From assembly GCA_026390755.1 (NCBI GenBank), contig JAPLFI010000202.1:999-64998 (forward strand): a stretch of DNA of 64,000 nucleotides, read 5' to 3'. The DNA comes from Ignavibacteriota bacterium (GTDB lineage Bacteria > Bacteroidota > Ignavibacteria > Tepidaquicellales > Tepidaquicellaceae). This document shows, in pieces, positions 28,709 to 35,234 of the stretch; within the stretch, counting starts at the first letter, position 1, and every line of letters begins with the position of its first letter. The translations under genes and the position numbers were made by a program. The notes under the pieces are model-generated. The model was not told where the DNA came from and did no database searches. It was given only the letters and a program-made list of their open reading frames with translations.

Positions 28709-29196
28709 AGAGAAAAGAATATATATCATGGGATGAATATTTCATGGGCATTGCAATGCTTTCGGCGAAGCGGAGTAAAGACCCTAACACACAGGTCGGC
28801 GCCTGTATCGTCAGTCCTGAAAACAAAATTGTCGGTATAGGATATAACGGATTTCCTACCGGCTGTTCGGATGACGACCTGCCGTGGGAAAGAAATTCAG
28901 GGGAAATAAATTTAACAAAATATCCTTATGTAGTGCACGCCGAGGCAAATGCGATACTCAACTCGACAAAAGACCTTCACGGCTCCAGAATCTATGTAGA
29001 TTTATTTCCGTGCAACGAATGCGCGAAGCTTATTATCCAGTCGGGCATTAAGGAAGTAATATATATTTCCGATAAGTATAAAGAAACAGATCCGGTGAAA
29101 GCATCAAGAAAGATGTTTAAATTATCCGGTGTAAAAGAAAGGCAGTTGATTATTAAAAATAAAATCATCAACTTGAACTTCGATTCAGTTCTTTAA
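28705..29196 (+). CDS. dCMP deaminase (ComEB/Dcd-type cytidine/deoxycytidylate deaminase)
   Basis: HAEANAI and PCNECAKLI zinc motifs. TTG start overlapping the upstream stop. Confidence 0.9.
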
Positions 29197-29204
29197 TATG
29201 TTTT

Positions 29205-29370
29205 TTTGGTTCCTTTTTCAACAAGGATTAATAGGGAATCCGGTGTAAGACCGGAACTGTCCACGCAACTGTAAACTGAGAAGATTTGTCTATCTGTGCC
29301 ACTGTTCGTATTAAACGAATGGGAAGGCGGATTAAAAATTGCTCGTAAGTCAGGAGACCTGCCATTAACG
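29205..29370 (+). promoter_or_regulatory. Cobalamin (B12) riboswitch aptamer
   Basis: AATAGGGAATCCGGTG..AGACCGGAACTGTCCACGCAACTGTAA, the B12 box GCCACTG at 29298-29304, GGGAAGGC, and AGTCAGGAGACCTGCC at 29348-29363. It lies directly upstream of a TonB-dependent receptor. Confidence 0.9.
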
Positions 29371-29487
29371 ATATTTCATATTCTTCGCTGGAAAGTGTAT
29401 ATGAACTAATAAAAAGACTCCTTTTGTCTTTGTATTCTTGCATATAATCTTCCGGCGGATAATACAAAGTTTTAAGGAGTTTTTTTA

Positions 29488-31416
29488 TTGAAAAGAATTT
29501 ATATATACATATTGTTTTTTTGTTTCACTTCACCGCTGTTCGCTCAACCGGACAACGACTCCTCTCAGTATAAAACCGAAACTATAAACATTTTCGGCAA
29601 CAGAACAGAATCAAACCTTCTTGAATCTCCGGTCTCAGTCACTTTAATTAACCGCAAATCAATCTCGAATATGAACGGGACAAATCTCGCCGATGTTCTC
29701 CAGAATGCCGGAGGTGTTTTTATTAAATCATACGGAGGAAACTCTTCACTTCAAACTATATCCATGAACGGTCTTGGAGCGGAGCATACCTTGATACTGC
29801 TTAACGGTAACCGAATCAATTCTTATCAGAATTCTCAGTTTGATTTATCGATGATAACAAAGGATAATATTGAATCGGTTGAAATTCTTAATAACGGTTA
29901 CAGCGCGGCGTTCGGCAGTGAAGCTTTCAGCGGTGTACTCAATATAGTAACAAAGGGTTTCGGAGCGGCTGATTTAGGCAGTAAATTTTCGGCTGATATT
30001 AAATCGGAATTCGGCTCATATAATTTCCGAAAATACGGAGCATCCGTCAGCAAAGGATTTGGCAGGATGAACTTCAGAGCATTTTACGAACAGGAAAATT
30101 CGGACGACAATTTCGATTATTATTATGATAACGGTGTATATGAACAAAAAAAACAAAGAAGAAACTCGTCTTTTAGCCAGAAGAATTTCAACGTAATTTT
30201 GAATTACTCACCCGATAAACTCCTTAAATATTCTTTCATATCAGCATATACCGATAATTCAAGAAACCTTCCCGGAATCGAAGCTGGGTCAGAACCCTCT
30301 GCGGCTTATCAGCTCGACAGGAACTGGAACAATTTATTCACTATCGAAAAAGAGTTCTCCGGTAAAAGGAAATTAAATACTGCTTTCGGATTTCAGAACA
30401 ATTACATGAAATACAGCTCAGACCCCGGCGGGAATAGTTTCTATAGAAATATCGTCGTCAGCGGGAAAGCAGTATATGATTTCAGGCTCGGAAATAATAA
30501 AACAGCAGTCGGAACAGAAATAAATTACGCTGTTCTCAACAGCAATAACACCGAAGATTTTAACGGAAGATTTCAGACCGCAGTTTACATGTCGTCTGAA
30601 ATTCCCGTTTCAAAACAACTTTTTGTATTTCCGTCGCTCCGTTATGAAAACACTTCCGATGCCGGCAAACAGGCTTTTCTGGGCAGAATCGGGATAAACT
30701 ACAGGATTATACGGGGGAAAAACATATTTTTAAGGTCAACTTTGGGAAACAGTTACAGGGTGCCGTCATTCAATGAATTGTACTGGAAAACAGGCGGTAA
30801 TAAGAATCTGAAACCCGAGCAATCAGTTAACTTCGATGCCGGACTGATATACAATCTGTTTCTCTTCGCAGATTATACACTGGAAGTAAAATACTTAAAC
30901 ATTAACGCCGTAAATAAAATCATCTGGAAACCCGGGTCTTCGTATTACTGGACTCCCGAAAATATCAGCTCTTCAAAGTCGGAGGTATATTCCGTTGATT
31001 TCAAAACAAAAAAGATTTTCAGTGATAAATTATCTTTATCATTGAATTTCAATTATACATATAATAAATCCGTTAAAAAGAGCGAAGATTTCCCCTCGGA
31101 CCCGTCTGCAGGAAAACAACTCATTTACATTCCCCTTGAGATGTCGAAGATCGGCGTCGAAGCAGAAGTATATGGACTGGGAATTAATATATTTTATATT
31201 TACAACGGAAAACGCTATAAAGATTATGAGAATACCGCATATCTTCCCGCGGTTAATTTAGTAAACGGGAATTTAAGTTATGACTTTATTTTTAAAAGTT
31301 TTGGATTCAATGCTAAATTCGAACTTAACAATATTCTCGGTGAAAATTATCAGGTGATTGCCGGATATCCGATGCCGTTAAGAAATTACAAAATAAGTTT
31401 AACTATTAAATATTAA
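29488..31416 (+). CDS. btuB: TonB-dependent outer-membrane receptor, probable cobalamin transporter
   Basis: Signal peptide, plug-domain sequence, and a beta-barrel ending in the aromatic ..LTIKY. B12 riboswitch leader. TTG start preceded by AAGGAG. Confidence 0.85.
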   Translation: MKRIYIYILFFCFTSPLFAQPDNDSSQYKTETINIFGNRTESNLLESPVSVTLINRKSISNMNGTNLADVLQNAGGVFIKSYGGNSSLQTISMNGLGAEHTLILLNGNRINSYQNSQFDLSMITKDNIESVEILNNGYSAAFGSEAFSGVLNIVTKGFGAADLGSKFSADIKSEFGSYNFRKYGASVSKGFGRMNFRAFYEQENSDDNFDYYYDNGVYEQKKQRRNSSFSQKNFNVILNYSPDKLLKYSFISAYTDNSRNLPGIEAGSEPSAAYQLDRNWNNLFTIEKEFSGKRKLNTAFGFQNNYMKYSSDPGGNSFYRNIVVSGKAVYDFRLGNNKTAVGTEINYAVLNSNNTEDFNGRFQTAVYMSSEIPVSKQLFVFPSLRYENTSDAGKQAFLGRIGINYRIIRGKNIFLRSTLGNSYRVPSFNELYWKTGGNKNLKPEQSVNFDAGLIYNLFLFADYTLEVKYLNINAVNKIIWKPGSSYYWTPENISSSKSEVYSVDFKTKKIFSDKLSLSLNFNYTYNKSVKKSEDFPSDPSAGKQLIYIPLEMSKIGVEAEVYGLGINIFYIYNGKRYKDYENTAYLPAVNLVNGNLSYDFIFKSFGFNAKFELNNILGENYQVIAGYPMPLRNYKISLTIKY

Positions 31417-31422
31417 AAAAAT

Positions 31423-32082
31423 ATGGATACAGAAACAAATAATTTACAGAATTCCGGCGGAAATAAGCTTAAAAAGAAAATGCTCGAAACAGTTGAAAAA
31501 TATAAATTACTCACGGATGAAGAAAAAAATTGTCTTCATATATACTACGGATACGGCAAAGGTAAAACCACAAGCACTATCGGTCTGATAATCAGGGCGC
31601 TCGGCGCCGGTAAAAAAGTTGCCCTGGTGCAGTTTGATAAAGGGTATGACGGAGAAAACGAACATTATTCCGAAAGGCTGATTCTGCGGAAACTCGCCGG
31701 TACAGGTTATAATATTGAGATATTCCCGACCGGATGCGAAAGAATGAATTCAGACGGAACTTTCAGGTTTAAAAATATGAAAGAAGATTTTTCCGAAGCG
31801 GAAAGGGGACTTTCGATATCGCGGAGTCTGATTACTGAGGGGACTCAGGATTTACTCGTTCTCGATGAATCTATTGCGGCTGTTGCTTATAATCTTTTGT
31901 CGAAAGCGGCAGTTGAAGAACTGATTGACCTTTACAAGAAAAACAGACGATTTGAACTTGTAATGACCGGTCATAAGCTGTGGAACGGACTTGAGGAAAA
32001 AGCCGACCTTATAACGGAAATGCGTAAAGTAAAACATTATTTCGACAAGGGTATTCCGGCCCGTGCCGGAATTGAATTTTAA
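31423..32082 (+). CDS. cobO: Cob(I)yrinic acid a,c-diamide / cob(I)alamin adenosyltransferase
   Basis: P-loop YGYGKGKTTSTIG, LVQFDKG, LVLDE. The true start may be the internal Met (MLETVEKY). Confidence 0.85.
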   Translation: MDTETNNLQNSGGNKLKKKMLETVEKYKLLTDEEKNCLHIYYGYGKGKTTSTIGLIIRALGAGKKVALVQFDKGYDGENEHYSERLILRKLAGTGYNIEIFPTGCERMNSDGTFRFKNMKEDFSEAERGLSISRSLITEGTQDLLVLDESIAAVAYNLLSKAAVEELIDLYKKNRRFELVMTGHKLWNGLEEKADLITEMRKVKHYFDKGIPARAGIEF

Positions 32083-32097
32083 TATATATACTGCCGA

Positions 32098-33126
32098 ATG
32101 AAAAAGATTATATTCTTATTACTCTCTGCTTTGTTCTTCTGTTCATGCAATACGGGTGAAATTATCACAAATCAAAATCCGGTTGTCGGCACATCGGGTG
32201 TGTATCTTCTGTCCGAAGGCTCCATGGCACCCGGCTCTGCGAAGTTATCTTATTATAATTCAACAAATGATTCACTGTATCAGAATATTTTCAGACCGGG
32301 TAATTTCGGACTATTTCCCGACGGAATGATATTTTACGGCGCGGACATTTATGTAACAGAGCAGGGCAATTATAATTCCACGGGCAGGTTGTATAAACTT
32401 GATACTTCCGGGAATGTACTTAATTCTGTTCTTGTCGGGATCAATCCATATTCTTTATGCGTCTCGAACGGAAAATTGTATATTACAAACGGACCTGCAG
32501 GAAATGTTTCCGTGCTGAATGCGTCAACGCTCGGTTTTATCAAAAATATTTCCGCAGGCGTTTATCCTCAGGAAATTATTGCATTGAACGGACGTGTATT
32601 TGTTTGCAACACAAGTATTTACGGCGGAAATCAGGATTCCACTATTTCTGTTATAGATGCATTAAAAGATTCCGTAATTAAGGTAATTGCATTAGGAAAA
32701 GATCCTTTTTCAATCGCCGTTTCAAAAGATAATAATATTATTGCCGGATGTCTAGGAGCGGACGGAAAACTTTATGAAATTGATCCCGCCGCTTTTGTTA
32801 TTCTCGATACGCTGTCGAATCAATGGGGTTTTGGCAAAGATATCAGCGTTGACATGCAGACCAATGACATATATTTCATTTCAAACTCTAACCACATAGT
32901 AAAATCAAATTTCGCATCAAGAACGTCAGTAATTGCGGTAAACAATTCAGAGCCTGCAGGCAGTTTCTTCTATGGCTATTTATTTGACAGTGTTAACCGG
33001 CGGCACTATATTGCAGATGCGAGGAATTTTTCCGTTTCAGGGCTGTTGAAAATATATGATATTAATTCGGCTTTAATAAATTCTTTTTCAACCGGTATTG
33101 CGCCGCGAAGACTGATGTTAAGATGA
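32098..33126 (+). CDS. Beta-propeller surface lipoprotein (YncE/DUF5074-like) in the B12 locus
   Basis: Lipobox FFCSCN. Repeated roughly 40-aa blades. GVYLLSEGS motif near the N-terminus. Confidence 0.5.
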   Translation: MKKIIFLLLSALFFCSCNTGEIITNQNPVVGTSGVYLLSEGSMAPGSAKLSYYNSTNDSLYQNIFRPGNFGLFPDGMIFYGADIYVTEQGNYNSTGRLYKLDTSGNVLNSVLVGINPYSLCVSNGKLYITNGPAGNVSVLNASTLGFIKNISAGVYPQEIIALNGRVFVCNTSIYGGNQDSTISVIDALKDSVIKVIALGKDPFSIAVSKDNNIIAGCLGADGKLYEIDPAAFVILDTLSNQWGFGKDISVDMQTNDIYFISNSNHIVKSNFASRTSVIAVNNSEPAGSFFYGYLFDSVNRRHYIADARNFSVSGLLKIYDINSALINSFSTGIAPRRLMLR

Positions 33127-33221
33127 GGCTTCCGGAAAATCAATATTGATTCGATTTCGGCAAAAAGTAACGGAAGTATTATAATATTTTTTTAATATTA
33201 CAATATTTATATCTTTACGGT

Positions 33222-34172
33222 ATGAATGACGACAGATTAATAAATAGTGAATACGGCATTATCAGCCGTGAATATCCCGTTAATACAATATTATCAGGCG
33301 CCGAGTCTGACGACTTCAGGATTTATATAAGCAATCTCGCTTTTTCTAAAATGGACGCTTATTTATCTTCGGATGTTGCGCGGGAACTCGGTGGAGTGCT
33401 AACCGGGAATTTATGCCGTAATGATGCCGGTAAGGATTTTATTATGATAGATGATATTATCATCGCAAAGTATGCGGAATCCGACTTAACCAAACTTACA
33501 TTCACACATAAAACATGGGAGTATATTAATAACTCACTTTCTTCCTCCGACTCCGCTAAGTCAATAATCGGATGGTTTCATTCGCATCCCGGACATAAAG
33601 TATTTATGTCCGGTTATGATGTGTTTATACAGGAAAATTTTTTCAACCTGGATCACATGGTGGCTTACGTTTTCGACCCGGTAAATCTCGAGAGGGGATT
33701 CTTTTTCCGGAAAAATAAAGAACTGATTAAAACCGAAGGTTATTATATATATGATAAGGGTTCGGCTGACTCTTACGGCGAAGTATCGGACGGCAGTGTG
33801 AAGGATAAAAGAGGTAATACGAATTCAAAGTTATTATATATTTTGCTTATATTTCTGATTATCAATTTTGCTTTATCCTTTTTTCTCATGTACAGAATCA
33901 GCGAAATGAATTCAAAATATATTGAGATTGCAATGCTTGAAAAGAAAATAAGCGATTTAATAACGGACGTCGGTAATATGAAAATTCAGATTGCAAAAAC
34001 AAACGAGGAAAATCCGAGACTATATACGGTCAGAGAGGGAGAGAATTTAGAAAGCATCGCGCTCAGGTTTTATAATGACAGGACGGGTGTAAATATGCTT
34101 GTTAAACAAAATAAACTCCGTGATGAATTTGATATTGAAGCCGGACGGATTTTAGAAATCCCGGACAGATAA
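33222..34172 (+). CDS. JAMM/MPN+ metallopeptidase - TM helix - coiled coil - LysM protein
   Basis: Glu55 (ARELGG) plus H120-S-H122-x7-S130-x2-D133 (HSHPGHKVFMSGYD) makes a complete JAMM motif. TM helix LLYILLIFLIINFALSFFLMY (about 204-224). C-terminal LysM YTVREGENLESIALRFY...GRILEIP. Confidence 0.8.
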   Translation: MNDDRLINSEYGIISREYPVNTILSGAESDDFRIYISNLAFSKMDAYLSSDVARELGGVLTGNLCRNDAGKDFIMIDDIIIAKYAESDLTKLTFTHKTWEYINNSLSSSDSAKSIIGWFHSHPGHKVFMSGYDVFIQENFFNLDHMVAYVFDPVNLERGFFFRKNKELIKTEGYYIYDKGSADSYGEVSDGSVKDKRGNTNSKLLYILLIFLIINFALSFFLMYRISEMNSKYIEIAMLEKKISDLITDVGNMKIQIAKTNEENPRLYTVREGENLESIALRFYNDRTGVNMLVKQNKLRDEFDIEAGRILEIPDR

Positions 34173-34177
34173 AACTT

Positions 34178-34717
34178 ATGACACCGCGCGAACGAAGACT
34201 GAAATCCGATTTCGAGAAAATTACAGCTGAATTCTCAGATCATCCGTATATTAAAGTTGAATTTGACACGAACGGTTTTATTCCTGAAAAATATCAGATT
34301 ACTTATACAGGTATAAACGGTATCAGATTAATCCCTTCAAAACCCGGAGAAGAGAAAATAGTCGAAATTATAGACGAACATGTTATTGAGATATATCTGC
34401 ACATTGATTATCCGAGAATGAAACCGCAGTGTTACTGTAAAACGGAAATATTTCATCCGAATTTCAGAATGGCGCATCCACATGATATCTGCATAGGGGA
34501 TTACTGGGCATCGGGTGAAACACTTTATGACCTCATATATCAGATTGGCGAAATGATACAATATCAGAATTACAATATTAAAAATCCTCTGAACGGAGTG
34601 GCGGCAAAATGGGCAAGGGAGCATTCCGATACACTGCCTGTGGGAAAAATTAACCTGTGGCTCGGTGAAATAAAACTGGATTTAAGTGAAAAAAATAATT
34701 TAGAATTAAACTTATAA
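34178..34717 (+). CDS. UBC/E2-like (ubiquitin-conjugating enzyme fold) protein
   Basis: IEIYLHIDYPRMKPQCYCKTEIFHPNFRMAHPHDICIGDYW matches the E2 signature (F/Y)P..PP..F.T.I.HPN...G.IC. HPN is at 34454-34462 and Cys105 at 34490-34492. The N-terminal RLKSDFEKI helix is also E2-like. It starts 5 bp after the JAMM gene. Confidence 0.7.
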   Translation: MTPRERRLKSDFEKITAEFSDHPYIKVEFDTNGFIPEKYQITYTGINGIRLIPSKPGEEKIVEIIDEHVIEIYLHIDYPRMKPQCYCKTEIFHPNFRMAHPHDICIGDYWASGETLYDLIYQIGEMIQYQNYNIKNPLNGVAAKWAREHSDTLPVGKINLWLGEIKLDLSEKNNLELNL

Positions 34718-34721
34718 TAAA

Positions 34722-35234
34722 ATGATTATTCCATATAATGGTATTACGCCGGTTATACACGAAAGCGTTTTTATATGCGAAGGAGCGCAGATAATCGGAG
34801 ACGTTGTACTTGAAAAAGACGTCAGCGTATGGTTCAACGCAGTAGTCCGCGGAGACGTCAACTATGTAAGAGTTGGGGAGAGGACCAATATTCAGGACGG
34901 TTCGATACTTCACAATACATATCAGAAATATCCTCTCACAATCGGCAAAGATGTTACAATCGGACACGGAGTCATACTTCACGGCTGTAATGTAAGGGAC
35001 AGGGTGCTTATAGGCATGGGCGCTGTACTTCTCGATGATTGCGATGTCGGCTCCGGTTCGTTTATTGCAGCCGGCGCTCTCGTCAGAGAGCATTTCAAAG
35101 TCCCCGAAGGCGTACTCGTTGCAGGTGTGCCCGGAAAAATTATACGCGATTTGAAACCGGAGGAAATTGCAAAAATTGATTACGGAGTGAAAAACTATCT
35201 GATGTACGTGGAAAACTACAGAAAAGGCAAATAA
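34722..35234 (+). CDS. Gamma-class carbonic anhydrase-like / left-handed beta-helix (hexapeptide) protein
   Basis: 170 aa. PaaY/YrdA-like, with hexapeptide repeats and His ligands (SILHNT.., IGHGVILHG). Confidence 0.85.
   Translation: MIIPYNGITPVIHESVFICEGAQIIGDVVLEKDVSVWFNAVVRGDVNYVRVGERTNIQDGSILHNTYQKYPLTIGKDVTIGHGVILHGCNVRDRVLIGMGAVLLDDCDVGSGSFIAAGALVREHFKVPEGVLVAGVPGKIIRDLKPEEIAKIDYGVKNYLMYVENYRKGK

Follow-up and report, generated by a model that had tools for sequence, protein, structure and literature searches.

Neighbouring bacterial genes for a ubiquitin-like protein (Ubl), an E1, an E2, a RING protein and a JAB peptidase were reportedly predicted by Burroughs, Iyer and Aravind (Mol Biosyst 2011), whose paper is also said to be the source of the Pfam family Prok-RING_1 (PF14446). 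This prediction is cited in passages of later work (PMC3417536, PMC11601596, PMC11601603). The Rpn11 homologue of Caldiarchaeum subterraneum (CsRpn11), whose operon holds genes for ubiquitin, E1, E2 and a RING protein like the bacterial system, trims the ubiquitin precursor and deconjugates (PMC6043591; PDB 6FNN, 6FJU). The same 2018 paper names 'bacterial lysM-associated JAMM sequences'. According to passages of two further papers, the CBASS Cap2/Cap3 and Bil E1/E2/JAB systems act in phage defence (PMC11601596, PMC11601603). Bil, Bub and CBASS resemble the system described here in their E1/E2/JAB chemistry on a Ubl or protein C-terminus, which the JAB peptidase trims or reverses (PMC11601596, PMC11601603, PMC10557695). 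Nevertheless, these systems occur in mobile or defence contexts, and the passages concerned predict no E3 for them and do not mention a membrane-anchored peptidase. As described there, Bub (6E) has Ser-type E2s and a DUF6527 protease, and CBASS requires a CD-NTase and an E1-E2 fusion.

The Ignavibacteria system reported here is of the kind predicted in 2011, and its JAMM protein adds a member. It has the same parts: a YukD-like Ubl, a ThiF E1, a UQ_con E2, a Prok-RING_1 E3 with a transmembrane (TM) helix and a JAB peptidase. However, it differs from the versions that keep these genes in one operon. The genes lie in two distant loci (JAMM-E2 and Ubl-E1-RING), fixed among the housekeeping genes of one family; there is one JAMM protein instead of two; and the E2 is a UBC core of 179 aa, against about 550-700 aa in Clostridia. 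The comparison with CsRpn11 is similarly mixed. Ubls of the bacterial system carry tails past the glycine, as the CsUb precursor does, but CsUb ends in Gly-Gly and the bacterial Ubl in Ala-Gly; moreover, CsRpn11 is archaeal and soluble and lacks both TM helix and LysM, whereas the bacterial JAMM protein is membrane-bound with a LysM domain. The MPN+ fold and the E...HxHx7Sx2D zinc site of the bacterial protein are also those of the eukaryotic enzymes Rpn11, CSN5, BRCC36 and AMSH. These enzymes belong to large soluble complexes, often as MPN+/MPN- pairs, whereas the bacterial one is bitopic with a peptidoglycan-binding domain, and no MPN- partner was seen.

Layout and topology of the JAMM protein

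The window, that is, the whole 64-kb stretch of DNA that was analysed, contains the JAMM gene with the following features.

33222..34172, + strand: gene of the JAMM-TM-helix-LysM protein, 316 aa (open reading frame, stop included; Pfam JAB and LysM above cut-off; AlphaFold2 model)
33288..33752, + strand: JAMM/MPN+ catalytic domain, residues 23-177, predicted cytoplasmic (AlphaFold2 secondary structure; Foldseek; invariant columns)
33579..33620, + strand: zinc-binding/catalytic motif H120-S-H122-PGHKVFM-S130-GY-D133, HxHx7Sx2D (sequence reading; 120/120 homologues)
33753..33830, + strand: low-complexity linker, residues 178-203, ending in the basic stretch KDKRGNTNSK (pLDDT < 50 at 181-199)
33831..33887, + strand: single TM helix, residues 204-222 (Kyte-Doolittle mean 2.74)
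33888..34004, + strand: predicted periplasmic helix, residues 223-261 (39 residues), with a weak heptad pattern (continuous helix 201-261 in the AlphaFold2 model)
34023..34163, + strand: LysM domain, residues 268-314, predicted periplasmic and peptidoglycan-binding by family (PF01476 and model fold)

The Pfam JAB family (PF01398) matches residues 34-140 at 32.8 bits against a cut-off of 22.5 (E 6.5e-8), and it is also matched in 139 of the 140 closest representatives of the JAMM family. The JAMM domain is intact, with both the catalytic E55 and HSHPGHKVFMSGYD found. The zinc signature H120-S-H122-x7-S130-x2-D133 is present in 120/120 homologues; in a 58-sequence alignment E55 and the motif residues are unchanged, and the invariant columns of the domain include E55, G57, G58, L92-T95, W99, G117, W118, H120-H125, S130 and D133. 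The AlphaFold2 model (mean pLDDT 82.8, about 90 over residues 20-177) consists of an MPN fold at 23-177, a disordered linker at 181-199, a continuous helix at 201-261 and a beta-alpha-alpha-beta LysM at 266-313. Among solved structures, Caldiarchaeum Rpn11, yeast Rpn11 and CSN5 come closest to it. The top Foldseek match is the Caldiarchaeum Rpn11 homologue 6FNN (E 1.1e-10, 26% identity, TM-score 0.79 on target), and the Foldseek probability is 1.00 against Rpn11, CSN5, AMSH and BRCC36. Judged from sequence and model, the protein is most likely a membrane-anchored Ubl isopeptidase and processing peptidase.

A preliminary description of the locus had proposed the domain order JAMM, basic stretch, TM helix, helix and LysM, which the two Pfam matches (JAB 32.8 bits, LysM 30.6 bits) and the TM helix at 204-222 bear out. 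The LysM limits that it gave, 268-314, are identical to those of Pfam PF01476, whose score of 30.6 bits clears the cut-off of 20.9 (E 3.3e-7). In the model, the domain is made up of strand 266-269, helices 276-284 and 289-296 and strand 310-313; residues G273, N297, G308 and P314 are invariant among 58 sequences. Since both Pfam matches exceed curated cut-offs and the full JAMM-TM-LysM layout recurs in more than 100 protein clusters, the layout is beyond chance. The helix between membrane and LysM had been described as heptad-like. A continuous helix does appear in the model, and the best register places I/L/V/M at 8 a/d positions against 5.9 in shuffles (P about 0.03); this support is modest, and the helix or spacer region is little conserved in sequence among relatives and differs in length by 0-70 residues.

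The topology was derived from several features. A hydrophobic N-terminus was looked for in the JAMM protein and was absent, so the protein has no signal peptide; exactly one hydrophobic segment of the TM type occurs in 119/120 homologues. The basic stretch SDGSVKDKRGNTNSK sits N-terminal to this segment, and the 15 residues ahead of the TM helix contain 4 K+R, compared with 2 behind. Among 119 homologues, K+R is higher on the N-side than on the C-side flank in 95, equal in 22 and lower in 2, with mean net charges of +2.1 and -0.3, respectively. The partner proteins Ubl, E1 and E2 have neither TM helix nor signal peptide. Taken together with the ATP requirement of E1, these features place the JAMM domain in the cytoplasm and LysM in the periplasm, as far as topology can be predicted from sequence. 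The orientation suggested earlier, with the peptidase inside and LysM outside, thus agrees with the flank bias (95/119), the single TM helix and the lack of a signal peptide, and given this topology 'spatially restricted deconjugation' is a fair description; the envelope-signal gating proposed alongside it is conjectural.

The layout had also been called an unusual architecture, and this view did not hold. JAMM-TM-LysM is the usual remover of a widespread bacterial five-part Ubl/E1/E2/RING/JAB system, so that the layout is standard and not an oddity. The JAMM family comprises 2,232 cluster representatives at E <= 1e-10. A survey of how often MPN and LysM co-occur had been proposed; about half of the best 140 of these 2,232 representatives carry LysM. 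Other outside domains among the best 140 are a GH25 muramidase and a PBP dimerisation domain, in one representative each. The lesson is mainly corrective: layout and topology are as proposed, yet they are the norm for the system and had been noted in passing in the literature (PMC6043591).

Partner genes and their distribution

The gene directly downstream encodes an E2, which the preliminary description overlooked, as it did the Ubl, E1 and RING E3 genes elsewhere in the genome.

34178..34717, + strand: UBC-type E2 gene, 179 aa, starting 5 bases past the JAMM stop (Pfam UQ_con; invariant residues; AlphaFold2/Foldseek)
34454..34492, + strand: E2 active-site stretch, from HPN (34454-34462) to the catalytic Cys105 (34490-34492) (sequence; 118 homologues)

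The E2 matches Pfam UQ_con at 27.8 bits against a cut-off of 27, and its residues H93-P94-N95 and C105 are invariant in 118 homologues. The AlphaFold2 model (pLDDT 87.7) has a UBC fold, which Foldseek matches to the eukaryotic Ubc13, Rad6 and UbcH5. In every related locus long enough to tell, the E2 gene adjoins the JAMM gene.

E1 and Ubl were searched for within the 64-kb window and none was found; a whole-genome search located both on contig C555. Together with contig C189, this contig makes up the second locus of the same genome, encoding Ubl, E1 and RING E3. The Ubl (L001 214-480; 89 aa) matches YukD at 58 bits and has the C-terminus ...LRLYPEITAG. The motif GDVLRLxPEITAG is invariant in five phyla and is followed by a variable tail of 0-9 residues, as in ...EITAG-SIHR or ...EITAG-K; the Ubl of the source genome stops exactly at the glycine, and precursor trimming is therefore unneeded there. 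The E1 gene begins 2 bases after the Ubl gene and encodes a single ThiF-domain protein of 395 aa (ThiF match 170 bits), in which GxGxxG, the zinc cysteines and C186 are all conserved. Its nearest solved relatives are the eukaryotic UBA1/7/6, NAE and SAE2; MoeB/ThiF rank behind them.

A RING E3 gene lies downstream of the E1 gene in 11/11 relatives examined, and Prok-RING_1 scores 43-55 bits in the four that were scanned (cut-off 29.1). The E3 spans the membrane once and carries an NTF2-like domain on the outside. The flanks of its TM helix carry 4-8 K+R on the N-side versus 1-3 on the C-side, which places the RING domain inside the cell. In the source genome (C189), the RING motif is present and the frame is broken after the TM helix, in the stretch C189:7255-7385: the frame shift lies near T7/A6 runs, the second zinc ribbon is missing and there is a 21-bp tandem duplication. 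This broken frame may mean that the system is impaired in the source genome, or it may reflect an assembly error. The assembly comprises 628 contigs with 3.5% contamination, and the contig that carries Ubl and E1 is 1.8 kb long; binning and the pattern in relatives are what tie these two genes to the organism. In the NCBIfam and PADLOC scans, no family exceeded its cut-off for Ubl, E1 or RING, and the E2 had no match whatsoever.

The two loci are kept and lost together. The E1 orthologue, E2 and JAMM are all present in 12 of 24 related genomes, and all three are absent from the remaining 12. The JAMM-E2 pair is found in 64 of the 86 genomes of the same Ignavibacteria family, representing 20/23 genera, and the whole system has been lost at least twice in this family (genus g148 and part of g145). 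Both loci are single-copy and occupy fixed sites among housekeeping genes (B12 uptake, LbH, YbeY and topoisomerase I). Orthologues with 30-66% identity make up a single operon of all five parts in Clostridia, Synergistales, Chloroflexota, Verrucomicrobia and Planctomycetes. These one-operon versions end with the JAMM-TM-LysM gene, and their first JAMM paralogue has a TM helix and no LysM.

Proposed working and alternative readings

We think it likely that the JAMM protein is an Rpn11-type metallo-isopeptidase that is anchored in the membrane and belongs to a complete ubiquitin-like conjugation system of bacteria. The parts list, the topology and the co-occurrence of the genes come from the present analysis; for E1 charging, E2 transfer and E3 delivery, the following steps draw on knowledge of the families. 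E1 would adenylate the C-terminal glycine of the Ubl and form a thioester on its conserved Cys186, from which the Ubl would be handed over to Cys105 of the E2. The RING E3, at the inner face of the cytoplasmic membrane, would then direct E2~Ubl to targets at the membrane or close by. Held by its TM helix at the same membrane face, the JAMM enzyme would cut the isopeptide bond after ...TAG so that the Ubl is recycled; it would also trim Ubl precursors in which 1-9 residues follow the glycine, as archaeal CsRpn11 does. The periplasmic helix and LysM would bind peptidoglycan and thereby set the position of the enzyme along the envelope, and perhaps its oligomeric state; in this picture LysM would act as an anchor. 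The placement of both E3 and remover at the membrane suggests that the targets are membrane or envelope proteins. To our knowledge, this lineage has no recognised proteasome to receive tagged targets. Our search of the literature on Ignavibacteria E2, JAB-LysM and Prok-RING/PF14446 found no experimental study of any member of the system.

LysM domains are usual in wall hydrolases, and some phage tail and wall-active proteins contain MPN domains. These associations would favour a JAMM domain that lies outside the cell and acts on wall peptides or secreted proteins independently of the Ubl. We give this arrangement almost no credence: the protein lacks a signal peptide and has its sole hydrophobic segment C-terminal to the JAMM domain, the 119 homologues show a consistent positive-inside bias, the nearest folds are Rpn11 and CSN5, and the gene shows strict coupling to those of E2, E1 and Ubl. 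A reading that keeps the JAMM domain inside is trans-envelope gating, in which LysM and the NTF2-like domain of the E3 would act as sensors, not mere anchors; wall state or muropeptides would switch JAMM and RING on or off, and Ubl tagging in the cytoplasm would thereby mirror what happens in the envelope. It gains from the bitopic build of both E3 and remover, each with a folded outside domain, from the LysM signature residues invariant in 58 sequences, and from the relatives with other wall-related outside domains (GH25 muramidase and PBP dimerisation, one each among the best 140). Nevertheless, a single TM helix followed by an ill-conserved spacer varying by 0-70 residues is a weak conduit for a conformational signal, LysM is missing from about half of the closest 140 representatives, and the one-operon versions have a first JAMM paralogue whose TM helix is not accompanied by a LysM, so we regard gating as unlikely. 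It is similarly doubtful that remover and RING E3 form a trans-envelope switch by which wall condition or a periplasmic ligand sets Ubl tagging versus untagging of membrane proteins. If true, bacteria would have an equivalent of receptor-coupled, membrane-RING ubiquitination, assembled from the nearest bacterial relatives of the eukaryotic E1/E2/RING/Rpn11 set, and the switch would belong stably to the cell physiology of this Ignavibacteria family instead of being a mobile defence element.

The system might instead defend against phages by tagging phage proteins at the membrane, as Bil tags phage tail proteins, with the JAMM enzyme restraining it. This idea draws on the defence role that passages of PMC11601596 and PMC11601603 ascribe to the characterised E1/E2/JAB systems (CBASS Cap2/Cap3, Bil), on a generic similarity of JAB and E1 to the PADLOC JAB and E1-E2 models, and on a patchy spread across distant phyla that suggests horizontal transfer. 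We hold it to be improbable. PADLOC models match neither E2, Ubl nor RING, and the available passages on Bil operons predict no E3 and do not mention TM-anchored parts (PMC11601603). The loci are single-copy and fixed among housekeeping genes in 20/23 genera, which looks more like vertical inheritance interrupted by occasional losses than like a defence island; this housekeeping placement in most genera of the family favours a cellular role at the membrane over a mobile defence role. We also doubt that the system of the source genome is a decaying remnant whose JAMM and E2 are heading for loss, as in genus g148 and part of g145. The RING frame on C189 is indeed broken and altered, and whole-system loss has happened at least twice in the family. 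However, none of JAMM, E2, Ubl and E1 is truncated or lacks a catalytic residue, the frame shift falls at homopolymer runs, and the highly fragmented assembly contains numerous perfect short tandem duplications; an assembly or sequencing error is no less probable.

This is the bacterial system most like eukaryotic ubiquitination part for part, with an E1 closest to UBA1/NAE/SAE2, a UBC-type E2 with HPN and Cys, a RING E3 and an Rpn11-like remover. The Ignavibacteria version, with only a soluble 179-aa E2 and a single JAMM protein and divided between two loci that genomes retain or lose jointly, offers a useful natural experiment, and the small five-gene set could be expressed in a laboratory host to learn what a membrane-bound bacterial ubiquitin system tags.

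Neighbouring genes and related families

Two further features flank the JAMM-E2 pair.

33127..33221, + strand: intergenic region upstream of the JAMM gene (consensus scan)
34722..35234, + strand: gamma-carbonic-anhydrase-like LbH gene, a conserved neighbour outside the system (comparison of genomes)

No terminator was predicted between the upstream genes and the JAMM gene (33127..33221). A weak sigma-70-like site lies at 33157-33185, as scored by a scan whose consensus does not cover the promoter type of the host lineage. The riboswitch of the B12 operon upstream was confirmed; a functional tie of JAMM-E2 to this operon was rejected, since the pair stands behind unrelated genes (S8 peptidases) in other genera, and the proximity is taken as local synteny only. 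The LbH gene was likewise rejected as a component of the system: it is present in all 10 system-less genomes tested, with 58-78% identity and directly after the B12 genes, and is missing from the one-operon versions of other phyla. The JAMM-E2 pair is thus a clean two-gene presence or absence between the B12 genes and LbH.

The JAMM gene was not assigned to any of the described defence systems. No Bil, Bub or CBASS partner genes stand beside the JAMM gene. For CBASS Cap3 (6A-MBL Cap2_3), NF058523 reaches 20 of the 320 bits required, and the neighbours are B12-uptake genes and LbH. As for Bil (BilABCD), whose four genes are ordered Ubl-E2-JAB-E1 in an operon without an E3, the E1 has a single ThiF domain, not the tandem IAD-AAD-CYS, the system includes a RING E3 and its genes lie in two loci; the lack of any PADLOC match for E2 or Ubl also speaks against Bil membership. 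With respect to Bub, the E2 has a conserved Cys105, not Ser, and no DUF6527 was found among the neighbours, to which that scan was confined.

The JAMM protein also has features in common with envelope proteins. FtsB, FtsL and DivIC are alike in having an N-in single TM helix followed by a periplasmic helix, and some sources label JAMM relatives 'FtsB/FtsL'; assignment to this group was rejected on a TIGR02209 score of 12.3 bits against a cut-off of 42.45 and a context without division genes. DipM-like envelope proteins share LysM as a wall-binding module. The corresponding matches of the JAMM protein are weak and below threshold (FtsL, E 0.12; DipM, E 0.039).

Architecture and topology of the JAMM–LysM protein

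The remover of a ubiquitin-like tag (Ubl) that is predicted in the window adjoins an E2 gene, and a RING E3 gene lies on another contig of the same genome (C189, locus L138).

33222-34172, forward strand: JAMM–TM–helix–LysM gene, an open reading frame of 316 residues
34178-34717, forward strand: UBC-type E2 gene, 5 bases downstream of the JAMM gene
C189:7023-7776, reverse strand: RING E3 gene, frame broken

In the 316-residue protein, Pfam matches JAB (PF01398) at residues 34-140 with 32.8 bits (cut-off 22.5) and LysM (PF01476) at residues 268-314 with 30.6 bits (cut-off 20.9). The signature of an active JAMM enzyme is complete, with Glu55 within ELGGVL and the stretch H120-S-H122-PGHKVFM-S130-GY-D133; the HxHx7Sx2D motif occurs in 120 of 120 homologues, and in a 58-sequence alignment both the catalytic residues (Glu55, H120, H122, S130 and D133) and the LysM signature residues (G273, N297, G308 and P314) are invariant. 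The protein has one hydrophobic segment (residues 204-222, Kyte–Doolittle mean 2.74), preceded by the basic stretch KDKRGNTNSK, and its N-terminus is not hydrophobic, with no signal peptide. An AlphaFold2 model calculated with 58 homologues as input (mean pLDDT 82.8) comprises four parts.

Residues 23-177: MPN fold
Residues 181-199: disordered linker
Residues 201-261: continuous helix
Residues 266-313: beta-alpha-alpha-beta LysM

The structure closest to the JAMM domain is that of CsRpn11, the Rpn11 homologue of Caldiarchaeum (6FNN), with E = 1.1e-10, a target-based TM-score of 0.79 and 26% identity; yeast Rpn11, CSN5, BRCC36 and AMSH follow. The preliminary description had listed a JAMM domain, a basic segment, a TM helix, about 40 residues with a heptad-like pattern and a LysM module, the last to be checked by its profile score, and Pfam, hydropathy and AlphaFold2 recovered each element where that description had placed it. 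The helix after the membrane is present in the model, but its heptad-like pattern is only weakly supported (eight a/d positions are I, L, V or M, versus 5.9 in shuffles, P about 0.03), and the stretch is highly variable in sequence and length between relatives.

Among 119 JAMM homologues with one TM segment, the mean net charge is +2.1 in the 15 residues before the helix and -0.3 in the 15 after it; K+R are more frequent on the N side in 95, equal in 22 and fewer in two. Together with the absent signal peptide, this charge bias supports a topology in which the JAMM domain would be cytoplasmic, with the helix and LysM outside the cytoplasmic membrane, as previously proposed from the sequence. 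This arrangement fits the partner proteins: neither TM segments nor signal peptides occur in Ubl, E1 or E2, and ATP is required by E1.

Partner genes at two loci

The E2 passes its Pfam threshold (UQ_con, 27.8 bits against 27), and all of 118 homologues share its residues H93-P94-N95 and Cys105. Its AlphaFold2 model (pLDDT 87.7, pTM 0.83) matches the eukaryotic Ubc13, Rad6 and UbcH5. The protein has 179 residues in the present genome, compared with about 550-700 in versions from one-operon loci.

No E1 or Ubl was found inside the window. The genome's single match to the ThiF family lies on contig C555 (1.8 kb), where an 89-residue Ubl (YukD PF08817, 58 bits; C-terminus ...GDVLRLYPEITAG) is followed two bases later by the start of a 395-residue E1 (ThiF, 170.5 bits). 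Among proteins of solved structure, the E1 is closest in sequence to eukaryotic UBA1, UBA7, UBA6, NAE and SAE2, in each case to the active adenylation domain (E = 1e-27 to 1e-19), with MoeB and ThiF ranking behind them (1e-16). An alignment of 34 E1 sequences drawn from several phyla shows conservation of the nucleotide-binding glycines, of a CxxC...C/H zinc site and of Cys186. Ubl identity across phyla is 56-66%, and the C-terminal ...GDVLRLQPEITAG is invariant, as is GDVLRLxPEITAG in the Ubl genes compared (L001, L039-L049 and L083-L137); such conservation is unusual for a bacterial accessory protein and reminiscent of that of ubiquitin itself. One to nine residues extend beyond the glycine in 19 of 21 one-operon loci and six of 12 Ignavibacteria loci, and such a tail is the mark of a precursor needing trimming. 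The Ubl of the present genome stops at the glycine.

The Ubl–E1 pair is followed in 11 related genomes by a protein of about 280 residues. Four of these were scanned, and each combines a zinc ribbon and an NTF2-like domain with a finger that scores 43-55 bits for Prok-RING_1 (cut-off 29.1). Each of seven RING proteins analysed for hydrophobic segments has one TM helix, with four to eight K+R before it and one to three after; these flank charges would place the RING inside the cell and the NTF2-like domain outside. The same membrane protein, polytopic and convergent (C-terminus ...MTAQLNxQFGLTL...), adjoins the locus downstream of RING in most relatives (L039-L049), which suggests that the second locus also occupies a fixed chromosomal site.

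In the present genome the locus continues on C189 with the end of E1 and with the RING gene. There the RING gene lacks the second zinc ribbon found in relatives and runs in two frames after the TM helix, with the break near T7 and A6 runs; towards its 3' end, 21 bp are perfectly duplicated in tandem (TIWKWKK/TIWKWK). The cause is either pseudogenisation or an error of assembly. Past the E1 stop, the final codons with their stop (VLSVKC*) stand three times in tandem at the end of C555 (C555:1660-1838), which diverges there from C189. The assembly contains about 150 perfect tandem duplications (unit length 15-40 bp), which may be assembly or amplification artefacts, a possibility that would matter for the ychF duplication noted earlier as well.

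Proposed working and relation to known systems

CsRpn11 has been shown to trim a nine-residue tail from its ubiquitin precursor and to strip ubiquitin off conjugates (PMC6043591). By analogy, the JAMM protein would take the ...PEITAG Ubl off target lysines and, in species with a tailed Ubl, would also mature the precursor; since the Ubl here already ends at the glycine, deconjugation alone would be needed. The RING E3 and the JAMM remover are both bitopic with catalytic domains predicted inside, so tagging and untagging would both be restricted to the inner membrane face, and the likely targets are proteins in the membrane or close to it. LysM would bind the enzyme to peptidoglycan; it may only position the enzyme or may also regulate it, as in the envelope-signal gating of the preliminary description. 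The analysis itself establishes the set of parts, the conserved active sites, the charge bias behind the topology, the co-occurrence and the synteny, and from these the chemical steps, the class of targets and the function of LysM are all inferred.

The system matches the prokaryotic E1/E2/RING/JAB neighbourhoods that Burroughs, Iyer and Aravind reportedly predicted in 2011, in the study from which Pfam Prok-RING_1 stems. That work is cited in PMC3417536, PMC11601596 and PMC11601603. [quoted passage not shown] An identity with Bil or CBASS was rejected, and one with Bub is unlikely: as described in PMC11601596 and PMC11601603, these encode no predicted E3 and use other partners, whereas the present system has a Prok-RING_1 E3 in relatives, its frame broken on C189. 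No part of the system has a specific model in NCBIfam or PADLOC, and literature searches found no experimental work on such a system. The gene is a further member of a computationally predicted kind of system, a compact ubiquitin machinery that resembles the eukaryotic one and is anchored in the membrane of a bacterium.

Distribution and synteny

An exhaustive search of 1.84 billion cluster representatives found 4,476 relatives with E <= 0.001, of which 2,232 reach E <= 1e-10. Of the best 140 representatives, 139 match JAB and 67 LysM; one carries a GH25 muramidase in place of LysM and one a PBP dimerisation domain. JAB–JAB tandems occur among relatives of 600-1100 residues (representatives P0257, P0281, P0282, P0296 and P0305), and TPR or Listeria–Bacteroides repeat domains in others. 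A scan of named genomes placed relatives in Clostridia (Lachnospiraceae, Oscillospiraceae, Acutalibacteraceae and Christensenellaceae), Synergistales, Roseiflexaceae, a Verrucomicrobia bacterium and a Brocadiia bacterium, all with a one-operon layout, typically Ubl–E1–E2–JAMM(a)–RING–JAMM(b). Nearly all full-length copies of the two JAMM paralogues at these loci (L082-L134) have the catalytic motif and one TM segment, and LysM occurs only on the last paralogue, usually at its end. Given the LysM count and the recurrence across phyla, MPN and LysM in one protein are common; the architecture, at first thought unusual, is ordinary for its system. The simplest version occurs in the Ignavibacteria family Tepidaquicellaceae.

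Within this family, 64 of 86 genomes, spread over 20 of 23 genera, carry the JAMM–LysM gene, and one genus lacks it in all of its 17 genomes. Outside the family, none of the other genomes sampled in the class has the E2; the phylum sample gave only two distant matches (32% identity), L009 (G167:C1, E = 3e-9) and L010 (G143:C65, E = 9e-8), both from genomes outside the class. When 24 genomes from the same order were sampled, E2, JAMM–LysM and an E1 orthologue (56-63% identity) occurred together in 12, and the other 12 have none of the three, with distant ThiF paralogues only. This joint presence and absence is evidence that both loci belong to a single system. In genomes without the system the flanking genes, CobO–(DUF5074)–LbH, are directly adjacent, about 20 bases apart, so JAMM–E2 is a clean two-gene presence/absence at one site. 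LbH, a gamma-carbonic-anhydrase-like gene, follows E2 throughout the family and was rejected as a member of the system, being kept in all 10 tested genomes without it.

The pair sits between LbH and a B12 cluster (29190-33126) in which a cobalamin riboswitch (RF00174 in Rfam, 116 bits) stands ahead of the genes for a TonB-dependent receptor, for CobO and for a beta-propeller lipoprotein with DUF5074. As no terminator is predicted before the JAMM gene, read-through into JAMM–E2 from the riboswitch-controlled B12 operon is possible.
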